Part shown: positions 3,609 to 62,000 of the stretch, in pieces
How positions within the stretch are numbered: position 1 is the first letter of the stretch
How the letters are laid out: each line of letters opens with the position of its first letter
From: Candidatus Harrisonbacteria bacterium CG10_big_fil_rev_8_21_14_0_10_49_15
GTDB lineage: Bacteria; Patescibacteriota; Minisyncoccia; UBA6257; 1-14-0-10-44-23
Length of the DNA: 64,000 nt
Reading direction: 5' to 3'
Assembly: GCA_002773415.1 (NCBI GenBank)
Contig: PFBD01000020.1
Span: forward strand, 25,667-89,666
The notes under the pieces: model-generated
The model's input: the letters and a program-made list of their open reading frames with translations, nothing else
Databases searched by the model: none
Told to the model about the DNA's origin: nothing
Position numbers and translations under genes: made by a program

Positions 3609-3715
3609 GCCAGTTGCTACTAGGCCTCTCCCAGTGTCTATGCGCTCTGTAGCGCAATCACAGGGATAGTAGCAGCTGCCCTTTGCGCCTCCGTAGGGGG
3701 CGCGGCCCGGCTTGG

Positions 3716-3859
3716 CTACCTGGCGTTGCGACGCAGCGAGCTGGAGTTGCTCACGACGCGCTTGGAATCGCTTCCGACGCCAGCGCGACCGGACTCGCTT
3801 CCGACTCCGGCGCGGCTGAACGTGTTGGCTCGGCGACTGTAGATGACTTTGTTGGTCAT
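3716..3859 (-). CDS. Gly/Ser-rich micro-ORF (47 aa), tandem copy 1. Preceded by the conserved leader caacccccacGgagttgggagaaaggagaa
   Basis: ATG with SD ggagaaaggag. Peptide MTNKVIYSRRANTFSRAGVGSESGRAGVGSDSKRVVSNSSSLRRNAR. Lies in a GC-rich islet. Confidence 0.45.
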   Translation of the reverse strand: MTNKVIYSRRANTFSRAGVGSESGRAGVGSDSKRVVSNSSSLRRNAR

Positions 3860-3949
3860 CTGGCTTCTCCTTTCTCCCAACTCCGTGGGGGTTGCGCCGT
3901 GAAAGGGAGTTCCACGGCTGTGCCTAGGTTCGTGACGTCAGCCGCGGGC

Positions 3950-4132
3950 TCACCCGTCCAGGGTGGTGCAGGCGCGACTGTACGTCGTCACGGCTCGGCG
4001 GAGGTTGTTGGTGTCGAGGCCGCGTCCCGAGTTGGACGAGCCACTCCGGTCGGAGTTCACGCCGCCGCTCTGGATCTTCCCGCCGTCCATGATCCCGCCC
4101 CGGGCGATGCCGTGGTCTTTGATCGGATTCAC
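3950..4132 (-). CDS. Gly/Ser-rich micro-ORF (60 aa), tandem copy 2, GTG start. Same conserved leader as copy 1
   Basis: Leader caacccccacAgagttgggagaaaggagaaagcaGTG. The C-terminal ..NNLRRA.. motif is shared with copy 1. Confidence 0.45.
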   Translation of the reverse strand: MNPIKDHGIARGGIMDGGKIQSGGVNSDRSGSSNSGRGLDTNNLRRAVTTYSRACTTLDG

Positions 4133-4261
4133 TGCTTTCTCCTTTCTCCCAACTCTGTGGGGGTTGTGCGGCTCTGGGAGCCGCGAGTCCAGTTTTTATG
4201 ATATAGGAAAAAAGCGTAGCTGGAAAGATAGTTCCGGAATTCTACGGACGCGCTTTGCGCG

Positions 4262-4738
4262 TTAGCCTTTGATGTCTACTTCGCCGTCAACTAGCGGACT
4301 GGTCGCGACTTGGAAGCGCATGGTGACTACGGCGCCGCTGGTGTCTTGGGCTGGGGCGTCGGTGGCGGCGGAGAAGATGCCATTGCCGTCGTCAACGTGG
4401 AGCATGGCGTGGTAGGAGGCGCCGGCAGTGGTGGACATGACGATAGAGACGTTTTGGTGAATGCCCGGTTGGAGAAGCTTGCTACTTGCGACGATGTCGT
4501 CAGGGGCGCCGTTGCTATCGGCGTGGATGACAACAAATCCTGGCTGGGTGAGCTCTACTTGGTCAACCACAACCGCGACTTTACTTGGGTCTTGCAGGCC
4601 GATGGTCAGGCTGTTGGCTTCGGCAGTCGTGGCTACCTCCTCAGTTGGTGCGCCGGAGCGGGTGAACATAAATATTAAAAGAGCGACGACTACGATGGCA
4701 ACGATTATCCAGAAGACTGTTTTATTTTTATTCTCCAT
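4262..4738 (-). CDS. Secreted/membrane-anchored hypothetical protein (N-terminal TM helix)
   Basis: N-terminus MENKNKTVFWIIVAIVVVALLIFMF. The ORF is followed by the hairpin cgcgcaaagcgcg. Confidence 0.6.
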   Translation of the reverse strand: MENKNKTVFWIIVAIVVVALLIFMFTRSGAPTEEVATTAEANSLTIGLQDPSKVAVVVDQVELTQPGFVVIHADSNGAPDDIVASSKLLQPGIHQNVSIVMSTTAGASYHAMLHVDDGNGIFSAATDAPAQDTSGAVVTMRFQVATSPLVDGEVDIKG

Positions 4739-4804
4739 ACATGTATTTAATTACTTATTTAAAGGTAGTATACCACTGCCCTGAGTGAAAAAGAAATGAA
4801 GAAT

Positions 4805-5743
4805 TTAGGGCTGAATGCGGAGGCGATAGGTGACTTCGCGAATATTGCGGAGCACAGAATCCTGTTCATAATCGTCGGTTATACGGATGTTTTGATTTCG
4901 GGATTTATCTTTAACGATCTCCTGGATGAGTGCTTTGAGGGTGCTGACTCGATCTAAGAGAAGTTGTTGATCTTTTGTGAGGGTGCGCTTGCTGAATACT
5001 TCTTCATAAAAATCGAGTTGGACCTCAATTTGTTTTAGGAAGACTATCTGGGCCGGGTGGTTCTCGATCGCGGTCCGACGTTCTAAAAATTTTTCTTGTA
5101 GTGCTGGTGTTCTATTCTTATTTTCTTGGAGACGGATAAGCTCTGAAAGGAGATCAATAAGTTCTTTGCAGTGCTGAGTATCAAGCCCGATCACTACAGG
5201 AACAATACCATCTAGTGATCCTCTGAAATCATCAGCCAAAGAGGCAAAGTATTTCACTCTAGTTTCGGGTTTCTCGTTTAGTATTTTGCGGAGGTTGCGC
5301 TCTATTTTTTTGGTGATTATGGTTTGATCGGCCGCGCGAGTAGCGTCAATTGCGAGCGCCATGCGTTCGAATATTTCTTCATTTGTGAATTCTGCGACCG
5401 CATCAACGCCATTTCGGATATCGTCATGTGCGGATGTGCGGACGATCTCTGTTGTAAGACCAAGCCAGGCACTTCTGCGGGTTTGATCTATGACTATTCC
5501 TTCCAGCGCTTTGCTTATCTGTTCGCTGTCTGCGATAACTTCTCTATCCTTGAATTGATGTTCAAGGTGATTGGCATCGGCTATGTCGCGTTCAATCTCT
5601 TCCGCGGGAAAGATGTCTGTAAAATCTCTTGGATCTAGTCTCGGATATTCTTTCTTTACGTATTGAGTGACAGCTTCGGCGTCCTTGAGGCGTTCGCGTT
5701 GCCTGTTTAAGCCGGGAAATTGATCTGGTTTCATATTACTCAT
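4805..5743 (-). CDS. Hypothetical protein (312 aa). Near-leaderless start behind a TACAAT box
   Basis: Long ORF at host-like GC. Upstream gctacaatgagtaatATG. Confidence 0.6.
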   Translation of the reverse strand: MSNMKPDQFPGLNRQRERLKDAEAVTQYVKKEYPRLDPRDFTDIFPAEEIERDIADANHLEHQFKDREVIADSEQISKALEGIVIDQTRRSAWLGLTTEIVRTSAHDDIRNGVDAVAEFTNEEIFERMALAIDATRAADQTIITKKIERNLRKILNEKPETRVKYFASLADDFRGSLDGIVPVVIGLDTQHCKELIDLLSELIRLQENKNRTPALQEKFLERRTAIENHPAQIVFLKQIEVQLDFYEEVFSKRTLTKDQQLLLDRVSTLKALIQEIVKDKSRNQNIRITDDYEQDSVLRNIREVTYRLRIQP

Positions 5744-5766
5744 TGTAGCTTTTTATATAGAAATGC

Positions 5767-5803
5767 AAAAGGCGCTTCCATGTCCGGCGGAAGCGCCCTT
5801 TCT
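5767..5803. terminator. Bidirectional rho-independent terminator (ggcgcttcc..ggaagcgcc with flanking T/A runs)
   Basis: 9-bp stem with U-runs on both strands. Confidence 0.6.
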
Positions 5804-5853
5804 GCGTGTGCTTGGCCTTAGCCAGGGGCACGAGCGGCGAGACCCCGCCTTTC

Positions 5854-6360
5854 TTATCGGGCTTTGGCGCCGCGTTTGCCAAGCTCGGAGAAGAGGTGGT
5901 GACTTATCTGAGCCCGACGCTCCTCGTTGCCCTTGCCATCCCAGTTGTAGTTGGAGAGGGTGTGATTGACGGCCTGGATGACATGGCTGTCGTGCGAGAC
6001 GTCGCTGCTTCTGAGGGCGTCTTGCTCACAGACCCAGGCCAGGAAACGAGCAGCCTGGTCGACGAGCTGGCGAGGCGAGAGGAAGGAGCCTCTTTTTGCC
6101 CAGTTGTCGTTTTTCCGCTGACCTCCCCGCTGCCGGACAAGGTACCCGATGGCGGCCTTGTAATCGTGGAAGGTATCGTCGTCGCTTGGCCCGAAGTGTT
6201 CGGAAACGACCTCTGTGATGATCGTGTCCATCGGGTTCTGGTCACGACCACGGACGGCGTACTTATCCAGTGCTGCGCGAGCAGCGTCCTGAACCCGTTG
6301 CTCGTTGATGAGCGGCGGCGGCTTCTTTCTTCTTGCGCTCACTTGGTTGCCCCCTGTCAA
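5854..6360 (-). CDS. Hypothetical protein in a GC-rich islet. Start is TTG at 6360 or the GTG 15 nt downstream (SD agggggc)
   Basis: 168-aa ORF in a ~63% GC segment. It has its own TATAAT box (rc of 6406-6411) and a downstream terminator. The overlapping plus-strand ORF 5806..7347 is a read-through artefact fused to nfo. Confidence 0.5.
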   Translation of the reverse strand: MTGGNQVSARRKKPPPLINEQRVQDAARAALDKYAVRGRDQNPMDTIITEVVSEHFGPSDDDTFHDYKAAIGYLVRQRGGQRKNDNWAKRGSFLSPRQLVDQAARFLAWVCEQDALRSSDVSHDSHVIQAVNHTLSNYNWDGKGNEERRAQISHHLFSELGKRGAKAR

Positions 6361-6427
6361 AAGACAGGAGTGTGCGCAGGTGAAGCAACCCAGTGCTACT
6401 TCTATCTATATTATAACATTTTTTTAT

Positions 6428-6459
6428 TTGAAAATCAAGGGTGGGACGTGTGGTACAAT
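6428..6459 (+). promoter_or_regulatory. nfo promoter: extended -10 (TGtgGTACAAT) with an upstream TTGAAA. Leader only ~6 nt
   Basis: Sequence ttgaaaatcaagggtgggacgtgtggtacaatggcgagATG. Confidence 0.5.
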
Positions 6460-6465
6460 GGCGAG

Positions 6466-7347
6466 ATGGCAAAGTTAGGCAAGCCACTTCTAGGCGCGCA
6501 TGTTTCTGTGGCCGGCGGATATGAAAACGGCATTACTGCGGGTGAAGCCATGGGCGCGGAAGTTATTCAGATCTTTGGCGCGAGCCCGCGGCAGTGGGCT
6601 GTTAAAGTTTCGAGTGAAACGAAGGTCGAGGCATTTAAAAAACAGTTTGCGACTAGTTCGCTGCAGGCGCTGTATTTACACGGCGCGTATTTGGTGAATT
6701 TAGGAGCGGCTAATCCGGAGGCGTGGCAAAAATCAGTAGCGAATCTGATCGCGCACTATCAGATCGCTACTCATCTGGGCGCGGATGGACTGATCTTTCA
6801 TGTGGGCAGCCCAAACGGAGACGATAAGCAGCAGGCTATGGACAGGGCTATTAAGGGTATGAAAGAGGTGCTGAAAAAAGTAACCCGTTCGACAAGCTCA
6901 GGGCAAGCCGGCAAAAGTTGGCTGATTATGGAGAACTCGGCGAGCCATAAAAAGCTGGGGGCGACGCCGGAAGAGATGCGGTATATGTGGGATGGCGTTG
7001 GCTCGGATCGGGTTAAGGTTTGTATTGATACGGCGCATGCGTTTGAGGCGGGGCTTATCATGGAGTACGCGCCGGCCAAGATCAAAGTATTTTTAGACGA
7101 GTGGGACGCGGCAGTTGGTTTGAAAGAAATTCCGGTGCTTCACGTCAATGATTCTAAGACCGCAGCCGGGTCTAATAATGATCGGCATGAGAATATCGGC
7201 GAGGGTTTGATTGGTAAGCAGGGGTTTGCGCATTTGGCTCGGGAGAAGAGGATGGCGGGCAAGCACTGGATATTAGAGGTGCCGGGATTTGACGGGAAGG
7301 GGCCGGATAAACGGAATTTGGATATTTTAAAGCGCTGTGTATACTAA
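6466..7347 (+). CDS. nfo: Endonuclease IV (Nfo, AP endonuclease family 2) with an in-frame family-B mini-repeat
   Basis: MAKLGKPLLGAHVSVAGGY..; the HVGSPNG and NDSKT..GSNNDRHENIGEG motifs. The inserted TRSTSSGQAG peptide is encoded by the repeat at 6884-6908. Confidence 0.85.
   Translation: MAKLGKPLLGAHVSVAGGYENGITAGEAMGAEVIQIFGASPRQWAVKVSSETKVEAFKKQFATSSLQALYLHGAYLVNLGAANPEAWQKSVANLIAHYQIATHLGADGLIFHVGSPNGDDKQQAMDRAIKGMKEVLKKVTRSTSSGQAGKSWLIMENSASHKKLGATPEEMRYMWDGVGSDRVKVCIDTAHAFEAGLIMEYAPAKIKVFLDEWDAAVGLKEIPVLHVNDSKTAAGSNNDRHENIGEGLIGKQGFAHLAREKRMAGKHWILEVPGFDGKGPDKRNLDILKRCVY
6884..6908. repeat. Family-B mini-repeat (cccgttcgacaagctcagggcaagc) in-frame in nfo
   Basis: See 2530 and 28129. 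Confidence 0.7.
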
Positions 7348-11643: not shown

Positions 11644-11653
11644 GTGCGAATCG

Positions 11654-11684
11654 GACCCGCGCGACGCTGTGCGTTGCGCGGGTC
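11654..11684. terminator. Hairpin terminator (gacccgcgcg...cgcgcgggtc) serving dus and the minus-strand micro-operon
   Basis: 10-bp GC stem. Confidence 0.5.
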
Positions 11685-11704
11685 CGTAGTCCTTGTCCGG
11701 GCCT

Positions 11705-11863
11705 TTAGTGGGCCCGGACCGGAGACGATTCACCCGAGTTCGGCACGGGTGAGTCCGAGGAGTGTAGTAGCAGGCAAAGCCCTCCTACTACAACCACAAT
11801 CGTCCAGAACCAGACGAGCAGCTTCATATACATCTGGCCGTCTCTGGACTCTTCTGTCGTCAT
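11705..11863 (-). CDS. Unannotated 52-aa single-TM peptide
   Basis: SD ggagaactagATG sits 16 nt after the upstream stop. Hydrophobic core KLLVWFWTIVVVVGGLCLLL. GC-rich. Confidence 0.45.
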   Translation of the reverse strand: MTTEESRDGQMYMKLLVWFWTIVVVVGGLCLLLHSSDSPVPNSGESSPVRAH

Positions 11864-11879
11864 CTAGTTCTCCTTGGGG

Positions 11880-12221
11880 CTAGGCGAACTCGAGTCCGGC
11901 CTCAAGTTCCTCCCAGGACATCGACCCCCCTGACTCTTCGTCTCGGGGGTCGGCCTCCTTTACGGGTCGACCGGCCGGCCGCCCGGTGGGGGCGGAGTAG
12001 CGGCGGTCCGTTCTGGGATGGGGCTTCGAGTCCAGGATCCCGCTTGGTGTTCTCGGCTCTCGTACGGTGGCGCGTTGTGTTCGGGCCAAGGTACCCTCCT
12101 CTTCTTTTTGCCAGCTGATGTAGCCGGCACCTTTCTTTTTATAGCGCTTGCATAAGGAATAGTCAAATAGCCAGTTCATTTTAGATAGTGGTACACTGGG
12201 TAATATATGCAATTTGAGCAA
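11880..12221 (-). CDS. Hypothetical protein in a GC-rich islet. The true start is probably internal (MNWLFDY..). Co-oriented with the micro-peptide gene
   Basis: ORF with GC-rich, Arg/Pro-rich composition. Its stop is immediately followed by the SD of the next micro-ORF. Confidence 0.4.
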   Translation of the reverse strand: MLKLHILPSVPLSKMNWLFDYSLCKRYKKKGAGYISWQKEEEGTLARTQRATVREPRTPSGILDSKPHPRTDRRYSAPTGRPAGRPVKEADPRDEESGGSMSWEELEAGLEFA

Positions 12222-15867: not shown

Positions 15868-15877
15868 ACGTACTAAC

Positions 15878-15909
15878 CTATTTCACAATTTGGTTAAATT
15901 GTGAAATAG
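15878..15909. promoter_or_regulatory. Perfect-armed 32-bp palindrome ctatttcacaatt-tggtta-aattgtgaaatag (putative operator), followed by a TATACT box
   Basis: 13-bp arms. A second copy lies downstream of the same regulator gene and a variant lies at 20602. Confidence 0.6.
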
Positions 15910-15923
15910 GGTATACTGGGATC

Positions 15924-16202
15924 ATGAACAATAAGGAGTGGGTGAGAGTGTTTAAGGCGTTGGCGAATCCGAATCGTTTGATGATCATTCGGATGCTAGC
16001 CGATGGTCGCGAGCGGCACGTGACTACCATCTCCTCGGAGATCCATGTGACTATGTCGGGAACATCACGACATCTACGGCAACTTACGAATTTAGACATT
16101 CTGCTTGAGTCGGGGAAGGCGAATCATGTTTTTTATTCGCTCAATCCGAGTATGCTGCCGGAAACGAAAAAGGCGGTTGAGCTGTTTTTAAAGTCGCACT
16201 AG
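15924..16202 (+). CDS. ArsR/SmtB-family winged-HTH transcriptional regulator
   Basis: ALANPNRLMIIRMLADGRERHVTTISSEIHVTMSGTSRHLRQL. Confidence 0.75.
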   Translation: MNNKEWVRVFKALANPNRLMIIRMLADGRERHVTTISSEIHVTMSGTSRHLRQLTNLDILLESGKANHVFYSLNPSMLPETKKAVELFLKSH

Positions 16203-16221
16203 TAATTTATTCTAGTTAAAC

Positions 16222-16253
16222 CTATTTCACAATTTAACCAAATTGTGAAATAG
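16222..16253. promoter_or_regulatory. Second copy (inverted orientation) of the 32-bp palindrome, downstream of the ArsR gene and upstream of the kinase gene
   Basis: ctatttcacaatttaaccaaattgtgaaatag. Confidence 0.6.
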
Positions 16254-16277
16254 GTTATGGTTTTTTTATGTTGTTTT

Positions 16278-16373: not shown

Positions 16374-16931
16374 ATGAAACTAGTTGTATTATTTGGACCG
16401 CCGGCCGTGGGGAAGATGACGGTGGCGCAGGAGCTGGCCAAGATAACGGATATTAAGGTTTTTCATAATCACATGACCATCGACTTGCTGACCAAGTTTT
16501 TTGAGTTTGGCAGTGAGCCGTTTCGAAAACTGTCACGTACTTTTCGTCGTGGAGTGATTGAGGAGGCGGCCAAAAGCAAGGTGAGTATAGCTTTTTCTGT
16601 AGCCTGGGATTTCAGCCAGTCTAGCGATACTGAAGAGATGAGGCATATTAAGGGTTTGGTAGAGAGTAATGGTGGGAGTGTGTATTTCGTGGAGTTAGAA
16701 GCGCCGCTTGAGGTGCGGCTGGAGCGAAACACGACGCCAAACAGATTGATGCATAAAGATAAGGCGAACGTGGCGGCGACAGAGAAAAATATTAGAGAGT
16801 GGCACAAGGTGTATCAGTTGAATAGTGCGCTAGGGGAGTTTCCGTTTCCGGAGCACTACCTGCGTCTAAGTACGGAGCATATGAGCGCGGCCGAGGCGGC
16901 GGTTGAGATTAAAAAAAGATTTGGTTTTTAA
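16374..16931 (+). CDS. P-loop NTPase / small-molecule kinase-like protein (AAA_33-like)
   Basis: Walker A GPPAVGKMT at the N-terminus. Size is 185 aa. Confidence 0.6.
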   Translation: MKLVVLFGPPAVGKMTVAQELAKITDIKVFHNHMTIDLLTKFFEFGSEPFRKLSRTFRRGVIEEAAKSKVSIAFSVAWDFSQSSDTEEMRHIKGLVESNGGSVYFVELEAPLEVRLERNTTPNRLMHKDKANVAATEKNIREWHKVYQLNSALGEFPFPEHYLRLSTEHMSAAEAAVEIKKRFGF

Positions 16932-16939
16932 AATGTACA

Positions 16940-16972
16940 GCGCCCGCCGAGAGAAGGTCTCTCGACGGGCGC
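16940..16972. terminator. Hairpin terminator (gcgcccg-ccgagagaaggtctctcg-acgggcgc)
   Basis: Nested GC stem. Confidence 0.5.
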
Positions 16973-16991
16973 CTGATTTGCGGTCGGCGCG

Positions 16992-17228
16992 TTAGGCGCC
17001 GGTGATTGCGGTCTTCAGGAACTCTTGAAGACCGCCGAAGGTGGTGACGCGCTCGGGTACCGGAACGCGTATGGCGCAGGGTACGCAGATGAGAGCCCAT
17101 CCCCTGGTGCCACGTCGAGCCCAGACCTTCGCCTCACAGCCCTTGTGGTGGCCGAGGGCTGTGTTCGGTCCTGGCGAGATCAAGGCCGAGGTTGGGGTTG
17201 GGTTGTGGAAGACGAGAATTTCTGGCAT
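16992..17228 (-). CDS. Doubtful Cys-containing small ORF in a GC-rich 280-bp islet. Its ATG is supplied by the IS terminal inverted repeat
   Basis: Peptide ..GHHKGCEAKVWARRGTRGWALICVPCAIR... The start codon lies inside the IS TIR (17224-17253), so the ORF is either created by the insertion or spurious. The region also contains strong hairpins. Confidence 0.2.
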   Translation of the reverse strand: MPEILVFHNPTPTSALISPGPNTALGHHKGCEAKVWARRGTRGWALICVPCAIRVPVPERVTTFGGLQEFLKTAITGA

Positions 17229-18303
17229 AAGGTGGAAAAACGGTGGGCTGTTTTAGCCCTTTTTTGATTTTCGAAGCGCCGTGCTGGAGTTAAGCATAAT
17301 GAGGTGTAATATCTTTTCTTGTTGTTGCTTGGAAGCGCCCCGATGTACTCGTATCAGATCACGCACATGCGAAAAATGACCTTCTAAAGAGTTGGTGTTC
17401 TTGGGAATGGTTGGATTAGATTCGTAGGTGAAGAGATAGGGAAAGAGCTCGCGGAGCGAGCGCGCGGCTTTTCTGAGCTCCTTGTGCGTGTACGACCAGA
17501 AGCCGTCCGGATGAGTAGTGGTTTCTGAAAGAAACGAGCCATACTTTTTCCAGTATAAAGAGATGCGAAGTTGCAGTGTTTTTCGGTCAGTGGTGTGCAG
17601 GCTTTTGCCTAGAGCCAGCAGTACCTCGCCAGCCTCGGTCTTGGGGTTTCGGGTGGTGCCGCGGATGATCAACCGCTCCATGTGCACTAGGCACATCTGA
17701 AAGGGAATCTTGAAAAACGCTGATCTGATGCCGCTAAAGCCGTCTCCGGTGACCGAGAGGATGGTGTAGCCCAAGGACTCCAAAGCACCCTTGCCCTGGG
17801 CATACGCCCAGGTGGTTTCTGTGTCCGTGCAAGTCCACCACAGGTCTTCGTGAGTCTGCCCATCTCGAAACACTAAAATACACCAGCTGTCTCCGGTGGT
17901 GCGCTTGCCGAAATATAAGGCGTCCACGAGCAGATGGACAGGTCTGGGGTGGTGGATTTTCTCCGGTATGAGGTATTGAGCCATCAGCTCTCTGATGGTC
18001 TGCGGATCATGCCCGGAGGTGGTGGCTAATTGACGGACTGTCTGTTCGCCAAAGACGTACGCATACCAGAGATTTTTGCTTTCTCTGGTATGAGCGCGTT
18101 TGGAGTTTCGGAATTGCTGTTTGCAGTGGTGACAACGATATGTCTGAATGCTCCGAGCAATACCATCTTTCTTAGTTTTTAAAGAGCCACGCTTCGGACA
18201 TTTTTTTGTTTTTTTTAATCATATGAGTTAAAAAATACGGCTAAAGCCGCATGAATGCAAGGGAAAGTGGGCGAAACAGCCCACCGTTTTTCCACCTTAT
18301 GCC
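17224..18303 (-). mobile_element. IS1595-family-like insertion sequence (~1080 bp) with 30-bp perfect terminal inverted repeats and an 8-bp target-site duplication (gaatttct)
   Basis: Left end ggcataaggtggaaaaacggtgggctgttt (17224-17253) is the reverse complement of 18274-18303. The flanking direct repeat gaatttct sits at 17216-17223 and 18304-18311. Confidence 0.8.
17253..18222 (-). CDS. IS transposase (DDE, IS1595-like with an N-terminal zinc-ribbon). The ORF is continuous for ~315 codons, but the only ATG (MIKKNKK) is in the +1 frame across an A7 run, so it needs a -1 slip or a homopolymer correction
   Basis: In-frame upstream extension KKTKKCPKRGSLKTKKDGIARSIQTYRCHHCKQQF... of the track ORF 17253..17984, then MAQYLIPEK... 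The ATG at 18220-18222 reads MIKKNKK and stops soon after in its own frame. The sequence cannot distinguish programmed frameshifting from a homopolymer-length error. Confidence 0.6.
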
Positions 18304-18481
18304 GAATTTCTCCTTCTCTTGTGATTTCGAGCTCCCTGATCTTTTCCGTCGTGCGAATGGTATCGGTCACGAGCCCTTCCTTCCTTCAAGACACAGACCT
18401 CCCTGTTGGGTCCTACTCTATTGGTAACATGGTATCGCTTTTTGGGTCAAGGATTTTTTTGGCAGTGATATACTGAGGGGG

Positions 18482-19663: not shown

Positions 19664-19673
19664 AATGCGAAAC

Positions 19674-19707
19674 CCCCTACCGGAAGACGGGTCTTCTGGT
19701 AGGGGGT
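19674..19707. terminator. Bidirectional terminator hairpin (ccccctaccggaagac..gtcttctggtaggggg)
   Basis: 14-bp stem with one mismatch, immediately after dinB. Confidence 0.6.
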
Positions 19708-19732
19708 GCGATTGGTTGCGCTTGGCCGACAG

Positions 19733-20497
19733 TTAGTCGGCGCGCAGGATCTGCAGTTGCTCGCTCAGCGTCATCAGGAGGAAGAAGCTGGCGCTGACCT
19801 GTTCCAGGAACAGCTGGCCGAGCCCGTGGCCACGCAGTTCGGGCTGGGGATCTTCTGCGAGCCATGCTCCTCCCGGGGTGAGGACGTGTGTCTGCACGGC
19901 CTTGATTCGCTCGGGTGGAGCGACGAACTCTACCCGGTGGAAGTTGTTGCCATAGTGGTCGCGGTGGTTTTCCGCGGGTGGGCGGAGCCAGGCGGTGACA
20001 GCATTGCTCAGTTCGCCGCGGAAGGTCTTCTCGTCGTCGCGGATGTAGAAGTGGGCGGAGCGGCACTTCGCGTTCCTGGCCAGGAGCCAGAGCGTGTGGC
20101 CGGCCCTTAACTCTGCGGGCGGCGTCAGTGTCCTGGCTTGGGGGCCATGTTCAGATTTTGCCTGCTTGAACTGGGCGAGATAGTCCAGTAGCGCCAGCAT
20201 GGTGCCGCCGGCGAACTCGTTACTGAACTCGTCCGCGGCCTTGGTCTCGATATTGGCATCGAGGTGAGTGACGCTGTGACCGTCGGTCTCCAGTAGCGCG
20301 CGGATGACGCGACGGATTGGGCGCCAGCCGGGGCTTCGCGCGCAAAGCCGTATGATCTCTTCGCGAGCATCCTGGTTGTTGCCGTGGTCGGCGATGATCA
20401 GGACGGACCGCCGAGTGAGCCAGTCGTCAGACCAGCCTTTGCTGAGGTGATCTCCGAATTGTTCAACGGTGCGCCGCTTTTCCGAGTCTTGCATGTT
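19733..20497 (-). CDS. Hypothetical protein in a GC-rich islet. Contains an ..LIIADHGNN.. motif reminiscent of alkaline-phosphatase-superfamily metal sites (not assigned)
   Basis: Strong SD aaggaggactcaacATG at 20497. The track ORF starts further upstream at 20602, inside the palindrome. GC ~64%. Confidence 0.5.
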   Translation of the reverse strand, partial: NMQDSEKRRTVEQFGDHLSKGWSDDWLTRRSVLIIADHGNNQDAREEIIRLCARSPGWRPIRRVIRALLETDGHSVTHLDANIETKAADEFSNEFAGGTMLALLDYLAQFKQAKSEHGPQARTLTPPAELRAGHTLWLLARNAKCRSAHFYIRDDEKTFRGELSNAVTAWLRPPAENHRDHYGNNFHRVEFVAPPERIKAVQTHVLTPGGAWLAEDPQPELRGHGLGQLFLEQVSASFFLLMTLSEQLQILRAD

Positions 20498-20601
20498 GAG
20501 TCCTCCTTTCAAAGGACAGCGCCCCTTGCAGGGCTTGTTGTGCGGGGCAATGAGCCCCGGGCTGTCTGTAGCATGCCATGGGCTTTTGGCGTGTGTCAAC
20601 A

Positions 20602-39264: not shown

Positions 39265-39288
39265 AGAGCAGATTGAGATGAAGCTAGC

Positions 39289-39312
39289 AAAAGACCCCGA
39301 AAGGGGTCTTTT
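39289..39312. terminator. Strong rho-independent terminator directly after rpsJ (aaaagaccccgaaaggggtctttt)
   Basis: Unusual position: in most bacteria rplC follows rpsJ directly in one operon. Confidence 0.7.
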
Positions 39313-39332
39313 GCGTATGGAAGAGGGTGTAT

Positions 39333-39360
39333 TGACAAATTAGTATAAATATGCATAATA
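39333..39360 (+). promoter_or_regulatory. Sigma-70-like promoter (TTGACA ... CATAATA) driving the inserted HTH gene
   Basis: Read directly. Confidence 0.5.
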
Positions 39361-39442
39361 AAGAAAGCTCGCTACTTGTCCAGCTGTGCTGGCGTAGACG
39401 GGAACGGTTCTTTGATTTGGGCTTAGGCCCAAGGAGCTCGGA

Positions 39443-39919
39443 ATGTCAGAGATTCTGCTCAAGGTCCCCAACGTCCGTCCCGGGTCCCTTGCCAAGCTGG
39501 CGGCTTTTCTCGAGAGTACCCAGAATAGGGTCTCTGAGCGGGACAAGAGCCCAATGGCTACGCTCGTGGTGGCGAAGCGGTACAGTGGCAACGACAACCG
39601 CTACGGCCTGACGCTCAAGGTGGAGTTCTGGTGCGATTCGGAGATCGGCGAGTACGTTTCCATCCCCGCAGCGCAGCTCCAGCAGATCTGGGACGCGCTC
39701 GGGCTGTATCCGAACCAGGGTACGGTGACGAGCGCTCCCGCGCAGATCGGCGATGGCACGCTTAATGTCGCTGTGGAGGCGGCCGAGAAGGCGGCGATCC
39801 GTGCGGCACTGGAGCAGACCGGTGGACACAAGGACGAGGCCGCAGCGTTCCTCGGAATCTCCCGGAAGATCCTGTGGGAGAAGTGCAAGGTCTACGAGAT
39901 CGATTTCGGGATCGAGTAG
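39443..39919 (+). CDS. GC-rich inserted gene encoding a protein with a C-terminal Fis-type HTH (HTH_8-like)
   Basis: SD aaggagctcggaATG. C-terminus AAIRAALEQTGGHKDEAAAFLGISRKILWEKCKVYEI. Inserted between rpsJ and rplC. Confidence 0.65.
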   Translation: MSEILLKVPNVRPGSLAKLAAFLESTQNRVSERDKSPMATLVVAKRYSGNDNRYGLTLKVEFWCDSEIGEYVSIPAAQLQQIWDALGLYPNQGTVTSAPAQIGDGTLNVAVEAAEKAAIRAALEQTGGHKDEAAAFLGISRKILWEKCKVYEIDFGIE

Positions 39920-40035
39920 TGCGAAGTACCCCATCGCTGACCGGGGAGAGAATAGGTCAGCAGCCACGCTGAAGCCCGCCAAAGGTGGGTGAAGCGGACG
40001 GGCTCGACAGTAGGAACACCCTACAGTCGAGCTCG

Positions 40036-40134
40036 TTTTTTGTTATTACGCGTGTAATAACATATGTAAGGACATTGTTACGTAGCATGTTACGTAACAC
40101 TTCTGATACTGTTAAAACATGAATGTTTTAACAG
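40036..40134. promoter_or_regulatory. Cluster of three perfect palindromes: gttattacgcgtgtaataac; tandem TTACGTA(g/a) palindromic boxes; ctgttaaaacat-ga-atgttttaacag
   Basis: Read directly. They lie downstream of the HTH gene terminator (39993-40034). Confidence 0.55.
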
Positions 40135-40184
40135 TTTTTTTGGGCCAAAGGGCTGCATTTGAACCGTTCTTGTCGGGGGCTTTA

Positions 40185-40253
40185 CCCCCACACCAATCGG
40201 CCAGGACTGGCTTTGCCAGCTGGGCCGCACCTGCTGGCCGATTGGTGTGGGGG
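40185..40253. repeat. Long hairpin with a 20-bp perfect stem (cccccacaccaatcggccag / ctggccgattggtgtggggg) and a structured loop
   Basis: Read directly. Immediately followed by a TTTACA-17-TATACT promoter for rplC. Confidence 0.6.
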
Positions 40254-40282
40254 TTTACAAATATGAAGAGCTTGTGTATACT
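40254..40282 (+). promoter_or_regulatory. Promoter (TTTACA-17 nt-TATACT) re-initiating the rplC..operon after the insertion
   Basis: Read directly. Confidence 0.5.
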
Positions 40283-40411
40283 AACCGGCATAGTTAGGTA
40301 AAGGTCTTGTGGAGCATGTTCTTCGCCGACCTGCAAAAACTAGTAATCAGCGTCTTATTGGAAGCTGAGCTAGGCTCAGTTTTTTAATTACTGGATTTCC
40401 GAATAAAAGCT

Positions 40412-47115: not shown

Positions 47116-47124
47116 TTCACTGAT

Positions 47125-53508: not shown

Positions 53509-53510
53509 GG

Positions 53511-53912: not shown

Positions 53913-54140
53913 GGCAATTATACCAGCATTTTTATTTTTTGCAATTGTCTATATTTGACCACATGTGCAATAGCCTGGGCACGGATTTCTTGACACGTTT
54001 GCCGACTTATTAAGAACACATGAAGAAGGCATTGACAAGACCACTAGACAATGCTAGGTTGATTGTTGCCTGGTTTTCTGGGCGTTTCTGATTTTTTTCT
54101 TTGGTTTTTCCGCCCTGGTGGCGGAGGAAGGAGCGGTGCG

Positions 54141-55073
54141 ATGAGCACTCGCTTTCTCGCCGCCTTGATGGCGGTTCTGGCTCTGGCTGCGATTAGCGTG
54201 GCTGGGCAGAGGATTCGGGCGGAGATCGAACTCCGGAATCCGAACGGGGCGGACTTGATCTTCAAGGTCGTCGTCGTGAACGCAGAGGATGGAAATGCCA
54301 AGCGAAAGCTGGCCAAGACTCGCATTCGCGGCGAGGGCGAGACTGAGCTCCGTCTTCGGGGCCGCGACTACTCCGAGAATTCTCGGCTTGTCGCCAAGGT
54401 TTCGGTGCGGCGCCGTGGTAAGTACTGGGATGCAGAGCTCGGGGAGATGCGTCGGCGGAACTGGTGGCCGGTCGCTGAGGCGGCGGTCCACGCTACCAAC
54501 GAAACCGGATCTGAGAGGATCCGATTCGTGATGGACATCCCTCTGCTTACGCAGATGCCGTTTGCCGATTTCGACGGCGACGGCGTGGCGGACGAAGACG
54601 ATGCCTGCCCGACTGAAGCCGGACCGGCCTCGAACCAGGGCTGCCCGGTGGACGATCCGGAGCCGAATCCGGCTCGTTCCGGCATCGTCTTGCACAACAT
54701 GACGACCGCCGGCACCATCTGGAACACGCCTGACGGGAGCAATCCCGCACGGTGTTTCCAGATAACGGAGGCCGGACACCCCGGTGTTCGGTGGACCTTC
54801 CGGCTGACCTCCGTCTCGGAGTTGCTGCCGGAGGACCTGACCTCGACGGATTCTCGTCGATGGCCGGTCCTGTTCAGCGAACAATCCCTTCGGGGGGCGA
54901 TGGGGGCGACGTTCCCGTCGTCCACTTCGTACCGGGAGATTTTCCGGCCGGAGAGCCCTCTTCTCTGGGAGTTCCAGGCCTTCGGCACCGATGTCGGTGA
55001 CGGGTGGAGCAACCTGGACTTCCACTGGGAGGAAGACACAGAGAAGTGGCTGCTGCACATCTACGTGCGGTAG
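54141..55073 (+). CDS. GC-rich secreted protein with a thrombospondin-type-3/OmpA-like Ca-binding motif
   Basis: SD ggaggaaggag, signal peptide MSTRFLAALMAVLALAAISVAG, then DFDGDGVADEDDACP. About 65% GC. Confidence 0.6.
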   Translation: MSTRFLAALMAVLALAAISVAGQRIRAEIELRNPNGADLIFKVVVVNAEDGNAKRKLAKTRIRGEGETELRLRGRDYSENSRLVAKVSVRRRGKYWDAELGEMRRRNWWPVAEAAVHATNETGSERIRFVMDIPLLTQMPFADFDGDGVADEDDACPTEAGPASNQGCPVDDPEPNPARSGIVLHNMTTAGTIWNTPDGSNPARCFQITEAGHPGVRWTFRLTSVSELLPEDLTSTDSRRWPVLFSEQSLRGAMGATFPSSTSYREIFRPESPLLWEFQAFGTDVGDGWSNLDFHWEEDTEKWLLHIYVR

Positions 55074-55160
55074 CCAGAGGTCTGCTTGAGCCTTGGCTCG
55101 GGCGGACAGCATGAGAGGGTCGGCAAGTTGCTCACGCGCTTGCCGGCCCCCTCGGAAACA

Positions 55161-55189
55161 TTGACAATTTTTAAAAAATATTCTATACT
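55161..55189 (+). promoter_or_regulatory. Sigma-70-like promoter TTGACA-17-TATACT for the surface-protein gene
   Basis: Read directly. Confidence 0.55.
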
Positions 55190-55198
55190 TAATTTAAC

Positions 55199-58922: not shown

Positions 58923-59651
58923 ATGAATATGAGCAATGAACAGTTCCCGATGAGGATAAATAAGTATTTGGCCCATAAGGGTATTTGTACTCGTCGTCAG
59001 GCTGATGATTGGATCGCACAAGGCCGGGTGATGGTGGGTGGCGAGCCGGCGGTCATTGGTCAGCAGATTCAAGCTGAGGATGAGGTGGTTGTGCGCTCAA
59101 AAGATCTGGCAAAAGCCGCTTCTGATAGAGTGTATTTTGCATTCAATAAGCCGATTGGCTTGGCAACGGAAGATGTTTTAGAAAAGTTGGTACCGACTCT
59201 GCCTAAAAAAGCCAAAGACGTATTTCCGGTCGGCCGCTTGGACAAAGTGTCGCATGGCCTACTTGTTTTAACTAATGACGGGAGGGTGACCGATCGATTG
59301 TTGAATCCAAAATATGTGCATGACAAGGAGTACGTTGTCCGGACTGATAAACCGATTACGCAGAATTTTTTGACTCGGATGGGTAAGGGTGTGAAGTTAG
59401 AGGATGGCTATATTACAAAGACGGCGATGCTGGCCGGTGAAGTTGGCGCCAAGCGCTTTTCTATTATATTGACTGAGGGGCGGAAGCATCAGATCCGACG
59501 TATGTGTACTGTTCTTGGCTTTGCGGTTAAGGACTTGCGCCGAGTGCGGGTGATGAACTTAAAGCTCTCCGGATTGGAGCCGGGTGAGTATCGGGAGGTT
59601 ATTGGTAAAGAACTGAAGGTATTTTTGAAGTCGCTGGGGATGGTTAAGTAG
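58923..59651 (+). CDS. RsuA/RluB-family pseudouridine synthase (S4 domain + PsuS)
   Basis: S4 motif. GRLDKVSHGLLVLTNDG (catalytic Asp). Confidence 0.8.
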   Translation: MNMSNEQFPMRINKYLAHKGICTRRQADDWIAQGRVMVGGEPAVIGQQIQAEDEVVVRSKDLAKAASDRVYFAFNKPIGLATEDVLEKLVPTLPKKAKDVFPVGRLDKVSHGLLVLTNDGRVTDRLLNPKYVHDKEYVVRTDKPITQNFLTRMGKGVKLEDGYITKTAMLAGEVGAKRFSIILTEGRKHQIRRMCTVLGFAVKDLRRVRVMNLKLSGLEPGEYREVIGKELKVFLKSLGMVK

Positions 59652-59762
59652 TATTAGCTTATTAGCTTATTAGCTTCTTAGCTGTTTAGGGAAATGGGTC
59701 ACGGCCCAAAACAGCCTGTTTAGCCGCGGCAGTAGCTAATCAGCTAGCCTTCTTTTCTTTGT

Positions 59763-60233: not shown

Positions 60234-60981
60234 TGTTATTTTCCTTAATTATCTGCAGGGCGCCGTCTATTAGAAGTTTGAAGGTGTCGAGGCTGCGCGG
60301 GTTGCTTATTTGTTGACCATTGATAAAGAAGGTTGGTGTGCCGGTTATTCTGGCGCGCTGGCCGCTGTTTATGTCAGTGGCAACCTTGTTGCGTACTGCT
60401 TCTGATTCGTAGTCAGAGGTGAACTGAGTGGTGTCTAGGCCAAGGGATTCGGCATATTCGGTGAAAAGGTCCTCAGCTCTTGGGTTAGTGGCCCATTTGT
60501 TTTGATTAGCAAAAATCAGGTCGTGCATTTCCCAAAACTTTCCTTGTTGACCTGCCGCCTCGCTTGCCCAGGCAGCCGGGCGGGCGTTTGGGTGAATGGA
60601 CATGAGTGGGAAGTGACGATAGACAAAGGCGATGCGGTCGCCGTATATATCGGCCAGCTCTTCAACTATGGGCGCGTAAAAAGCGCAGGCCGGGCATTGA
60701 AAATCGCTGTACTCAACAAGTAGTAGTTGGGCATCGCGATTACCTTTGACCTGATCTTGTTCATTAATAGCGTCTGTGAGCGCGTTATTCGGGGTTTGGG
60801 AATTGCCACCTGAGAGCATGGCGATGGCGACGATGGCGCCAATGATAACAATAATGCCCATAGTCCAGATAAGCACACTCTTGCTCTTGCGTGCGGTACG
60901 GGCACTATCGCGGGACTGCTCTTTGCTGGCTTTTTGTTGGTCGTACTGCTCTTTTTTTGAAAGTTGTTCGTTGTTGTCCAT
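60190..60981 (-). CDS. DsbA-like thiol:disulfide oxidoreductase (membrane-anchored)
   Basis: Thioredoxin fold, active site CPAC. Confidence 0.8.
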   Translation of the reverse strand: MDNNEQLSKKEQYDQQKASKEQSRDSARTARKSKSVLIWTMGIIVIIGAIVAIAMLSGGNSQTPNNALTDAINEQDQVKGNRDAQLLLVEYSDFQCPACAFYAPIVEELADIYGDRIAFVYRHFPLMSIHPNARPAAWASEAAGQQGKFWEMHDLIFANQNKWATNPRAEDLFTEYAESLGLDTTQFTSDYESEAVRNKVATDINSGQRARITGTPTFFINGQQISNPRSLDTFKLLIDGALQIIKENNSDNDNATTTTDQNS

Positions 60982-61057
60982 ATTTTTTATAGCTTTATTA
61001 CTATTAATTATGCCGGGATTATAGCAGTTTTGGTCTGATTTTGCTATCCTGTAAGGA

Positions 61058-61414
61058 ATGAGGTTATTGAGAAAAGTGAGTCATCCACTGCGTGGGATTA
61101 TGGCTACTACTAAGCGTGATCTGAGTTTTCGTTTGGAAATTTTTGGTGGTTTTTTGCTTGTGCTTATTTTGGGTTGGCTTTGGCCGGTCAGTCAGGTGGA
61201 GCTCTTTGCGATTTTAATTACTTACGGGCTGGTGCTTGTTGCAGAGTTGACTAATACAGCTCTGGAAGCAGCGCTTGATAAACTGCATCCGGAACAGCAT
61301 GAGTCTATTCGAATAAGTAAAGACGCCGCGGCCGGAGCGGTTTTGATAGCTGTTTGCTTGAACGTGACCGTAGTGGCACTAGTTATTTTGGCGCGTTTCG
61401 GTGTGAGCCAATAA
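61058..61414 (+). CDS. dgkA: Diacylglycerol kinase (DgkA family)
   Basis: VAELTNTALEAALD and three TM helices. Confidence 0.8.
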   Translation: MRLLRKVSHPLRGIMATTKRDLSFRLEIFGGFLLVLILGWLWPVSQVELFAILITYGLVLVAELTNTALEAALDKLHPEQHESIRISKDAAAGAVLIAVCLNVTVVALVILARFGVSQ

Positions 61415-61447
61415 AAATAGCTCAAAGTGAATTTTTTTTCATTTAAT

Positions 61448-61473
61448 AAAAAAATGGGCGGCCGCCCATTTTT
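61448..61473. terminator. Bidirectional terminator (aaaaaatgggcggccgcccatttttt)
   Basis: Perfect palindrome with A/T runs. Confidence 0.7.
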
Positions 61474-61573
61474 TAATTAAATGAGAATTTAAGTGATATG
61501 TCGATCTTTGAGAAACCTACGACGAGGCTGCGTGCGACGAGGCTGAACCTCGTAACTTTCGTTTCGGGGTTGT

Positions 61574-61692
61574 TTAGTGTTTGACTGGATGGCTGGGCAT
61601 GACGAGAGCCGCTAAAATGTAGATAATAATACTGGGAACGACTCCGGTGAAGACGAGGATGAAGATCCAGATGACGCGTAGTAGCGTTGGGT
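61574..61692 (-). CDS. Unannotated PspC-domain micro-protein (39 aa)
   Basis: SD aggtgg, then MNVDPTLLRVIWIFILVFTGVVPSIIIYILAALVMPSHPVKH (DPTL.R..F.L.....G...Y...W...P pattern). Confidence 0.55.
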
Positions 61693-61720
61693 CTACGTTC
61701 ATGTATTCGGCTAAGCCACC

Positions 61721-62000
61721 TAAGACCCTGGGTTGCGATATTCGCGCGACGCGTTCTTAGCCAGCTTCGTCAAGCGCAAGGCTTGCCGAGCGAGCGGTAG
61801 CCTGTGTGCTACCGCGACTGAGGCATAACGCCGCGATTGGCGAAGCTGGCCAGAACCATTCGGGATACGGCAAATTGCTTCAGGAGCTTCGTTGCTTCGT
61901 CCTCGGAGTATCACAACAGGATACACCTTCGGACTCGCGCCTTGCTCCTGAAGCAATTTACCAGTATCGCGACCGGCGAATATCGCAACTCAGGGTCTAG
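61721..62000 (-). ncRNA. Candidate structured GC-rich RNA / long 5' leader (~280 nt). It has a closing stem that pairs its two ends and at least five internal helices
   Basis: Pairings: 61726-61746 with 61972-61992; 61764-61773 with 61836-61845; 61870-61888 with 61940-61958 (19 bp); hairpins gcggtagc..gctaccgc and gcaagg..cttgc. A TATAAT box (rc) lies at ~62012-62017. Confidence 0.4.

Follow-up and report, generated by a model that had tools for sequence, protein, structure and literature searches.

In a 64-kb stretch of the genome of Candidatus Harrisonbacteria bacterium CG10_big_fil_rev_8_21_14_0_10_49_15 (contig PFBD01000020.1, positions 25,667 to 89,666; in the following called the window, with positions counted from its first nucleotide) we found eight short islets rich in guanine and cytosine (GC), which lie between conserved housekeeping genes. 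It is rather probable that these islets are moron-like accessory transcription units, which occupy variable chromosomal slots and are subject to turnover there. The cassettes are foreign to the core in three independent ways, namely in their composition, in a weak imprint of the strand skew of the host genes (the genes of the window outside the islets), and in translation led by a Shine-Dalgarno (SD) sequence. The islet genes are named A to I: B and A are located in islet 1, C in islet 2, D2 and D1 in islet 3, and E, F, G, H and I in the islets 4 to 8, respectively.

The organism belongs to the Parcubacteria in the candidate phyla radiation (CPR) and is a groundwater bacterium with a tiny genome. 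Tiny genomes are general among CPR bacteria, for which a life on other cells is assumed, and this raises the question of how they acquire new functions. The window carries housekeeping genes, among them uvrA, uvrC, nfo, dus, a gene for a UvrD/AddA-like helicase, dinB, fusA, tuf, the S10-spc ribosomal block, pgk and a gene for RNase H, and it also encodes a surface protein with a sortase. Nearly all genes are on the plus strand and the GC skew is strongly positive.

Composition and coding signal of the islets

Runs of 200-nt windows with at least 60% GC were merged, which resulted in eight segments (3526-4665, 5757-6330, 11544-12173, 16882-17262, 19636-20584, 30565-30909, 39414-40036 and 54098-55174). 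They coincide with the GC-rich islets listed in an earlier reading of this DNA (below, the sequence-only reading). The islet cores have a GC content of 0.60-0.63, compared to 49.3% for the whole window (standard deviation 0.062 over 200-nt windows). The islets are 0.3-1.2 kb long and together make up 9.7% of the window. At the cassette borders the GC shift is abrupt, without a gradient into the flanks.

The GC content at the third codon position (GC3) is 0.68-0.89 in the open reading frames (ORFs) of the islets versus 0.534±0.046 in 39 host genes, and the islet ORFs follow the periodicity GC3>GC1>GC2, as real genes do. In host genes on the plus strand, the frequencies of G, C and T at the third position (G3, C3 and T3) are 0.37, 0.16 (0.16±0.04) and 0.31, and in those on the minus strand G3 is approximately 0.14 and C3 0.31-0.53. 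This bias is extremely strong and tracks the DNA strand, not the direction of transcription; therefore naive comparisons of codon usage are confounded. As the pooled contrast in C-ending codons is partly driven by the strand, we rely on GC3, on the A and T content of third positions (A3+T3) and on skew attenuation instead. A3+T3 is 0.12-0.32 in islet genes and approximately 0.4-0.57 in host genes on either strand, and the third-position G+C excess of the islet genes is independent of strand. The strand skew of the host is much weaker in most islet genes: the three of them on the plus strand have a C3 of 0.29-0.37, compared to 0.16±0.04 in the host.

Translation start signals

No SD sequence was found in 47 of 56 host genes, and only two of the 56 have one of at least 5 nt. 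In contrast, AAGGAG or a longer motif (AAGGAG, AAGGAGG or AAGGAGGT) precedes eight of nine islet genes, with the start codon 5-8 nt downstream (8/9 versus 2/56; Fisher p=8e-8). This contrast is stronger than in the sequence-only reading, which had set AGGAGG-type SD sequences of the islets against an often leaderless host. The window was also scanned blindly for an SD sequence followed by a start codon and an ORF of at least 40 aa; outside the islets, SD-plus-start matches were located only inside long host ORFs. Seven host genes have an extended -10 box (TGnTAnnnT) whose end is only 6-11 nt away from the ATG, and by eye plain TAnnnT boxes were seen at this distance in several further host genes, which points to leaderless host transcripts. 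The leaders of the islet units are 40-260 nt long and contain a strong SD sequence.

The islets could alternatively be non-coding GC-rich spacers or structural DNA, in which frames stay open by chance because stop codons are AT-rich. Indeed, long ORFs exist on both strands (for example 54054..55112 on the minus and 54063..55073 on the plus strand), and most products are without a match in Pfam, PHROGs, NCBIfam or PADLOC. Beyond helix-turn-helix (HTH) and TSP3 motifs, nothing was found for the islet proteins in the last three collections, where H has a weak match to a PHROG HTH family (E=0.003). Single-sequence AlphaFold models are of low confidence (predicted local distance difference test score 48 for H and 40 for F), and a GC-rich palindrome at 61723-61998, described below, is truly non-coding. 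Against this speak the GC3>GC1>GC2 periodicity in the chosen frames and the SD sequence, which is correctly spaced before the first start codon in eight of the nine genes. Moreover, H contains an HTH_8 domain, I has a signal-peptide-like N-terminus, and conservation extends over the full length of I and over 121 aa of C. A non-coding nature of the islets is therefore very improbable. A role as RNA genes was ruled out by empty scans, since neither Rfam at gathering thresholds nor ARAGORN detected an RNA gene in the whole window, and no tRNA was found. Rfam scans by E-value of the regions 61400-62100 and 11600-12250 gave chance hairpin matches or nothing.

Architecture of the islets

Strong 3' hairpins (free energy -24 to -32 kcal/mol, z -4.4 to -6.8) are located behind A, C, D1, E, F and H. 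The hairpin behind I is weak (z -2.5) and there is none behind G. Four of the strong hairpins sit between convergent genes, where they probably also terminate transcription of the upstream host gene. Consensus sigma-70-like promoter sites precede B, C and H, the site of D was spotted by eye, and that of I (TTGACA-N17-TGnTAGGTT) is below the scan threshold and is kept in the homologue of I. The site of F is weak and no promoter was assigned to G. The claim of the sequence-only reading that every islet has its own promoter and is bracketed by GC-rich hairpins thus holds for most islets, but its promoter part is doubtful for F and G, and its hairpin part is doubtful for I and fails for G.

Islet 1 (3574..4261, minus strand, 62.8% GC) is a two-gene cassette. 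Behind a promoter-like site (4226-4198, minus), the genes B (4132..3950, minus, 60 aa, GTG start) and A (3859..3716, minus, 47 aa) are arranged in tandem, and both products are rich in Arg, Gly and Ser. A 33-nt leader with AAGGAG is repeated before each of the two genes (4137-4169 and 3865-3897). The hairpin at 3574-3606 is common to the cassette and the convergent uvrC. Islet 2 (5744..6499, minus) is the least extreme one. It contains a promoter (TTGATT-17-TATAAT, 6438-6410, minus), gene C (6342..5854, minus, 162 aa, GTG start, GC3 0.73) with a weak GGGGG in the place of the SD sequence, and a terminator (5801-5767, minus).

In islet 3 (11644..12166, minus), the genes D2 (12089..11880, minus, 69 aa, Arg/Pro-rich product, AGGAGG as SD) and D1 (11863..11705, minus, a membrane peptide of 52 aa, AAGGAG as SD) follow a long GC-rich leader. 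The promoter seen by eye is TTGACT-17-TATAAA (12166-12138, minus), and the hairpin at 11652-11686 is common to the convergent dus. Islet 4 (16932..17223, minus, 63% GC) comprises the 3' part of gene E and the hairpin at 16939-16973. Gene E is split by an IS256-like element (17224-18303; 17216-18311 with the 8-bp target duplications GAATTTCT), which has perfect terminal inverted repeats of 30 bp and a transposase gene (17984..17253, minus; NCBIfam IS256_Zn_var, E=8e-47). The 5' part of E and its upstream region (18304..18440, minus) harbour the target duplication, the SD sequence and the start codon (18370-18368). The reconstructed coding sequence (18370..18312 plus 17223..16992, minus) has the SD GAAGGAAGG and encodes 96 aa. 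The intact target duplication in the split gene indicates that the cassette predates the insertion sequence (IS) and that the organism can dispense with E.

Islet 5 (19664..20600, minus, 62.3% GC) contains gene F (20494..19733, minus, 253 aa, AAGGAGG as SD, GC3 0.78), a weak promoter-like site (20599-20570, minus) and a hairpin (19672-19707) common to the convergent dinB. Islet 6 (30575..30894, plus) is located between a Sua5/YrdC-like gene and a HAD-like gene, lacks a terminator of its own and carries gene G (30594..30869, plus, 91 aa, SD AAGGAGGT, GC3 0.71).

Islet 7 (39265..40411, plus) is inserted between rpsJ (S10) and rplC (L3). In it, the S10 terminator (39289-39312, plus) is followed by the promoter TTGACA-16-CATAAT (39332-39359, plus), gene H (39443..39919, plus, 158 aa, GC3 0.82), whose product has a C-terminal Fis-type HTH, and a terminator (40000-40041, plus). 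The tail of this islet is AT-richer (45% GC) and contains a second terminator (40108-40135), a perfect inverted repeat of 21 bp (40184-40254) and a new promoter for rplC (TTTACA-17-TATACT, 40254-40282, plus) with a leader of approximately 130 nt. In this leader, a terminator-like hairpin with a T-run is present at 40364-40385, which could be an attenuator. Islet 8 (53994..55198, plus, 62.5% GC) has a promoter (TTGACA-N17-(TG)TAGGTT, 54032-54060, plus), gene I (54141..55073, plus, 310 aa, AAGGAG as SD, GC3 0.77) and the weak hairpin (55115-55153). The product of I has a signal-peptide-like N-terminus and one TSP3 motif.

The Fis-HTH protein and the small Arg/Gly-rich proteins announced in the sequence-only reading were both recovered, the former as the HTH_8 domain of H (E=1e-11) and the latter as the small Arg/Gly/Ser-rich peptides. 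For its secreted TSP3 protein the outcome is divided: I matches OmpA/TSP3 proteins strongly over a short stretch and has the signal-peptide-like N-terminus, but Pfam gives only a weak match for the TSP3 motif, which does not reach the cut-off (E=5e-4). The region 61700-62000, which had been listed as a further islet, was dropped: it has 57% GC, contains no gene and consists of a nested palindrome of 276 nt (61723-61998) with an outer stem of approximately 27 bp and two long hairpins. Both strands of this palindrome fold stably, with a minimum free energy between -160 and -166 kcal/mol (z approximately -12). It is located between a mini-gene with a PspC domain and an ABC-2 permease gene, is single-copy in the sequences compared and has no match in Rfam; it could be a MITE-like element (MITE, miniature inverted-repeat transposable element) or a structured RNA.

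A family of 40-nt palindromes, TATTTCNCAATTT-N4-AAATTGNGAAATA, has three copies in the window (15875-15914, 16219-16258 and 20599-20638). Two copies flank a gene of the ArsR HTH type (15924..16202). The third is at the border of islet 5, beside the -35 box of the weak promoter of F and upstream of gene 20714. The palindrome looks like an operator and was found only in this population.

Assembly of the junctions and mobility signals

The abrupt GC change at the borders would also be expected if high-GC fragments had been joined chimerically into a CPR contig by assembly or binning. In addition, two short contigs from independent assemblies (L002 and L008) end at 39406 and 39469, which is at most 40 nt from the start of H and at the AT-to-GC shift; chance, an effect of coverage or of GC content, or strain heterogeneity at this slot could account for this. 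However, the junctions of the three islets tested (5, 7 and 8) were assembled independently with both flanks from different samples in ENA, Logan and JGI: the junction S10-H-L3 recurs in seven contigs, DinB-F-PD-(D/E)XK in ten and RNase H-I-surface protein in six. Three other assemblies contain islet 7 with 100% identity. Look-ups of the exact proteins S10, H, F and I revealed only this population, with the context unchanged. Furthermore, one islet is interrupted by an IS whose 8-bp target duplication is intact, and AT-rich promoters of the host type and shared bidirectional terminators link the islets with the neighbouring genes. For the three islets checked, misassembly is practically ruled out, and as a general explanation an artefact is extremely improbable. 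In one of the contigs compared (L089, 3832-5006; ERZ27293386), dinB, which is intact in the window (18482-19663, 393 aa) and in further assemblies, is represented by two ORFs of 227 and 158 aa, due to a frameshift polymorphism or to an assembly error.

We also considered that the islets could belong to a single family of small integrating elements, which, like integron cassettes, MITEs or IS cargo, would insert at specific sites such as terminator hairpins. Several islets adjoin GC-rich hairpins located just past the stop codon of the upstream host gene, and equivalent slots are reused in relatives (see below), as such a family would predict. However, no sequence common to the islets was detected by blastn or tblastx, apart from the 33-nt leader repeat within islet 1, and the islet proteins are mutually unrelated by blastp and by shuffle-calibrated local alignment. 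The longest direct or inverted repeats at the islet borders are 7-10 nt, which is within the range of the shuffled controls. Among the islet ORFs and nearby ORFs scanned there is no integrase or recombinase; the only transposase is that of the separate IS256-like element, and a tRNA is also missing. Finally, in contrast to integron cassettes, the islets come with promoters of their own. The integrating element family proposed in the sequence-only reading therefore found no support, and we judge it to be very unlikely.

Variable slots in related genomes

A scan of the genome collections with the helicase revealed two syntenic relatives, L003 and L004 (Harrisonbacteria nzgw427), in which the gene order is as in the window and the proteins are approximately 55% identical to those of the window. 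In slots equivalent to those of the window, GC-rich islets are present between dus and the helicase gene in both relatives, and upstream of dinB and between dinB and the PD-(D/E)XK gene in L004. The genes in these islets have a high GC3; one is ECF-sigma-like (ECF, extracytoplasmic function), one encodes a MOSC-domain protein and the others are orphans. All four SD-led gene starts of L004 belong to GC-rich slot genes, L003 has two such starts, and further ones exist in a third relative, L099. L099 is closer to L003 and L004 than to the window, with which it shares 70% identity in UvrA, 57% in UvrC, 53% in Nfo and 48% in DUF7282 (44-57% for the flanking proteins DUF7282, Gmad2, Nfo and UvrC). 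The relatives from the metagenome scan are at most 59% identical, so that the comparison is above the strain level and concerns other species or genera.

No similarity between the cassettes of the window and those of L003 and L004 was detected by blastn, tblastx, blastp or shuffle-calibrated Smith-Waterman alignment. The slot contents of L003 and L004 are also dissimilar to each other, although the flanking genes match by approximately 70-90% in tblastx segments, and the genes in the slots differ in number, size and strand. Altogether, the content differs among the window, L003, L004 and L099 in five slots: between dus and the helicase gene, upstream of dinB, between dinB and the PD-(D/E)XK gene, between uvrC and the DUF7282 gene, and between the DUF7282 gene and nfo. 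In shuffle tests slot-matched pairs scored no better than unmatched ones, with the sole exception of C and its homologue P0123. Thus the comparison with syntenic relatives, which the sequence-only reading had proposed, showed that some of the slots are occupied in L003 and L004 by GC-rich, SD-led genes which are unrelated to those of the window. To judge from the sequences compared, the style and the slots recur across the lineage, and the contents do not.

SD sequences are almost entirely absent before the long ORFs of 44 loci (at least 10 kb each) from relatives among the Parcubacteria, and this includes the loci with higher GC content. SD-led small genes with raised GC3 occur sporadically and are without Pfam matches. 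Orphan genes of this kind are located at equivalent positions in L099 (two small genes after uvrC at 3389-3901 and a gene with a GC3 of 0.93 beside nfo at 6587-6989), in L049 (9355-9825) and in L051 (11195-11890), where a gene of 231 aa directly follows dus. A survey of 80 metagenome loci by GC windows was abandoned as too unspecific, since it flags dus itself.

Homologues of the islet genes

For F and H no homologue was found in a word-indexed search of 5.8e9 proteins, which can miss relatives below approximately 40% identity. I has one full-length homologue, P0003, with 43% identity. It is encoded on a contig of 1.1 kb (L006), has itself 64% GC, a GC3 of 0.82 and an SD sequence, and is located behind an upstream region with 44% GC. 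The promoter of I aligns with that of P0003 (ATTGACAA...ATGnTAGnTTGA), and the two look homologous. For C, an exhaustive HMMER search of 1.84 billion representatives gave one match, P0123 (E=1e-4 library-wide), with 36% identity over 121 aa and z=20.9 compared to shuffled sequences. P0123 is encoded on L099 in the slot between the DUF7282 gene and nfo, as is C in the window, beside the SD-led gene with a GC3 of 0.93. No homologue of C is present in this slot of L003 and L004. The viral contigs scanned with F, H, C and the A/B leader motif contained no relatives, and a tblastn search of plasmids with F and C gave nothing. The matches of the MOSC cassette of L004 had only 25-31% identity and are therefore not informative about a donor.

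The location of P0123 in the slot of C in a distant relative, in which the flanking proteins have 47-57% identity with those of the window, suggests that C is not a recent import. C may be old in the lineage or may have been swapped slot for slot, and its weaker GC3 (0.73) and its GGGGG fit a longer residence. Repeated acquisition of foreign cassettes, as supposed in the sequence-only reading, is supported by the contrast in GC3, skew and SD sequences and by the absence of the cassettes from syntenic relatives, while the homologue of C argues against a uniformly recent import. That reading had regarded the same GC-rich genes with host-like codon usage at the same loci of relatives as a finding that would speak against import; something close to it is seen for C alone, in P0123 of L099.

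Origin of the cassettes

Alternatively, the islet genes could be endogenous and lineage-specific. They would then be inherited vertically in Harrisonbacteria and evolve too fast for detectable orthology, while their GC content and SD sequences would be held by selection or by GC-biased gene conversion; in the selection variant, structured GC-rich leaders would need an SD sequence in an otherwise SD-independent system. At 36% identity, the homologue of C in the same slot of L099 is hardly more diverged than its neighbours (44-57%), and GC-rich, SD-led genes in corresponding slots can be similar in size and orientation, as exemplified by F (253 aa, minus strand) and a 230-aa minus-strand gene at the matching position of L004. 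The homologue of I retains a GC3 of 0.82 and an apparently homologous promoter at 43% identity. Further, the long ORFs of higher-GC Parcubacteria are SD-less too, so that the core style of a Parcubacterial donor cannot explain the SD sequences. However, the slots of L003 and L004 are unlike despite the match of their flanks, the slot genes of L099 are missing from its closer relatives L003 and L004, and slot-matched pairs are no more similar than unmatched ones, except for C and P0123. The abrupt GC borders and the weaker imprint of the host skew in the islet genes are also at odds with a vertical origin. Weighing both sides, we regard an endogenous origin as possible but not probable.

Several observations have to be held against the turnover of accessory units, which we prefer. 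A truly empty slot was not seen in the relatives compared; the nearest case is the dinB slot of L003, with 680 nt and no ORF of at least 60 aa. No donor was found for any cassette in the searches made, and the only homologues, those of I and C, come from lower-GC or CPR-like contexts and not from high-GC genomes. A high-GC host organism as the source, which the sequence-only reading had considered, is no more than a possibility. The homologue of C, moreover, is from a relative with a divergence of approximately 55%, and for it vertical descent would fit as well as exchange. The AT-rich promoter of P0003, which is apparently homologous to that of I, in front of a gene with a GC3 of 0.82 indicates that GC richness can last over long divergence inside AT-richer genomes, which is awkward for recent import followed by amelioration. 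The lack of matches for F and H means that there is no relative above roughly 40% identity, and not that there is none at all; in line with this limit, the homologue of C surfaced only in the exhaustive search (C is not a called gene in the collection). Part of the pooled preference of the islet genes for C-ending codons is a strand artefact, with six of the nine islet genes on the minus strand and host minus-strand genes also C3-rich. Finally, the gene 4805..5743 (minus strand), a 312-aa orphan of 44-47% GC and a GC3 of 0.43, which is located like C between the DUF7282 gene and nfo, has no SD sequence and is leaderless, is without counterpart in L003, L004 and L099. Since this AT-rich gene is variable too, not all accessory genes are GC-rich and SD-led.

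By their anatomy, the cassettes are independent units between conserved syntenic housekeeping genes, most with one gene and two with two genes. An AT-rich promoter of the sigma-70 type is followed by a leader with SD sequence and by an orphan gene with high GC3, and most units end in a GC-rich hairpin. The turnover of such moron-like units could proceed as follows. Horizontal transfer and recombination may bring cassettes into intergenic sites that tolerate them, and may also remove them or exchange them for others. By analogy to the minimal mobile elements of Neisseria, the likely entry route would be DNA uptake followed by recombination, either illegitimate or assisted by homology of the flanks. 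The source may be a GC-richer, SD-using gene pool, which is hardly sampled. Times of residence probably differ: C could be old and partly ameliorated, and A, B, F, H and I may be younger. The cassettes would be expressed separately and may provide the cell with regulators, with small basic peptides and with proteins that are secreted or reside in the membrane.

A more far-reaching proposal, which we consider unlikely, is that Harrisonbacteria, and perhaps Parcubacteria, have a two-tier genome. A leaderless or SD-less core, with a composition moulded by the mutation bias of the host, would coexist with orphan cassettes that are GC-rich and SD-dependent, have their own promoters of the CPR type and circulate as a pool endemic to the lineage. 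A mechanism without repeats as traces would swap these cassettes in recurrent intergenic slots, even in the S10 operon. If so, translation of accessory genes, such as those for surface proteins, regulators and small peptides, would be under separate control via the SD sequence, which would then be more than a mere trace of a foreign donor.

Comparison with known systems

Phage morons of the HK97/HK022 type are accessory transcription units with their own promoter and terminator and deviant GC content, located between genes which are adjacent in relatives (PMC3594210). The islets resemble them in consisting of one or few genes with own promoter and terminator (the promoter of F and the terminators of I and G being weak or absent), in their GC content (60-63% versus 49.3%) and in the diverse cargo, which is often without recognised function. 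The flanks of the islets are also syntenic in L003, L004 and L099, but the slots there mostly hold other cassettes. Unlike phage morons, the islets are located in a CPR chromosome among uvrC, dus, the helicase gene, dinB, rpsJ/rplC and the RNase H gene, have no clear PHROG match (H has a weak one for its HTH) and no relatives on viral contigs, and differ from their surroundings in the mode of translation initiation as well. Since they reside in a cellular chromosome without phage genes, the islets are not morons in the strict sense.

The minimal mobile elements (MMEs) of Neisseria, in the definition quoted in PMC3787668, are another relevant model. According to the excerpted text of that paper, differing cassettes occupy one slot among relatives, mobility genes and repeats are missing and the composition is deviant, and in all of this the islets are similar. 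The homologue of C in the corresponding slot of L099 would fit exchange or retention via flanking homology. In Neisseria, one and the same cassette recurs at a given slot even among strains of distant relationship, and its transfer by transformation has been documented. Here, in contrast, only C has a homologous slot-mate, at 36% identity, and species or genera were compared instead of strains.

In Patescibacteria, horizontal gene transfer (HGT) was reported to account for up to 13% of genome length and to occur mostly within Patescibacteria, and genomic islands were described in the nzgw genome set (excerpts of PMC12455944). The phylum is the same, the name of L004 places it in this set, and the islets make up 9.7% of the window. 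According to these excerpts, islands were predicted with IslandViewer and transfers with MetaCHIP, which requires that the donor is in the data set; a donor-based detection of this kind would miss orphan cassettes of 0.3-1.2 kb without identifiable donor. The excerpted text of that study does not mention a contrast between SD-led and SD-less genes, and our literature search on SD and leaderless usage in CPR bacteria found nothing relevant.

Other classes of mobile DNA are less similar. Like integron cassettes, the islets are small, mostly consist of one gene, are rich in orphans and can deviate from the host in composition. However, they lack attC-like common ends, the hairpins at their borders are terminator-like and have no common sequence, they are scattered over 50 kb with their own promoters, and no intI was found among the ORFs scanned. 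Classical genomic islands exceed approximately 10 kb and have a tRNA, an integrase and direct repeats, all of which are missing from the islets with their 0.3-1.2 kb. The terminal inverted repeats and target duplications of MITEs and IS elements are absent from the eight islets and were found only for the IS256-like element at 17224-18303.

Significance of the cassettes

HGT and genomic islands in Patescibacteria are already known (excerpts of PMC12455944). New here are the sub-kilobase scale, the orphan content without identifiable donor, the strict association of the cassettes with SD-led translation, while the genome is otherwise SD-less or leaderless, and the reuse of slots, one of which is inside the S10 operon. 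With approximately 10% of the window, the cassettes represent a class of accessory DNA which is invisible to donor-based detection and at this size is likely missed by island predictors. A strong SD sequence together with high GC3 could serve as a marker, and a scan of thousands of CPR genomes for it could measure gene turnover. The cassettes also raise the question of how SD-led mRNAs are handled by ribosomes whose usual templates are leaderless or lack an SD sequence. It should be emphasized that a regulator cassette, that of H, with its own promoter and terminator separates rpsJ from rplC and thereby splits one of the most conserved bacterial operons. If the ordinary reading, scattered HGT, is true, the result is a useful but modest refinement.

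Other repeats in the window

A modular palindromic repeat of approximately 92 nt with four small hairpins is present at 1016-1111, 2596-2687, 11410-11500 and 14148-14239, within the ORFs of uvrA, uvrC, dus and the helicase gene. The order of its two halves varies, its in-frame translation is ...SSF(I/S/T)KGGGRRPEDF..., and it resembles the Rickettsia palindromic elements. The insertion in dus is absent or different in relatives, and no copies were found in the fetched loci outside this genome.

AT-rich oligomer repeats (AATTTCCAATTTCC, CGAATTACGAATT, TAGCTTATTAGCTT and TCACGAATCACTAAT) are located in and around intergenic spacers, chiefly in the ribosomal protein block, and often form inverted pairs around genes. 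Examples are the sites 2181-2204, 23771-23841, 37557-37647, 41811-41907, 44397-44513, 45176-45290, 47000-47118 and 59648-59691. In addition, a coding repeat, (A/G)TTCGACA(A/G)GCTCAGG(A/G)CA, is present in uvrC (2527-2552), nfo (6883-6908) and a third gene (28128-28153), and is translated as ...TSSGQG/A....

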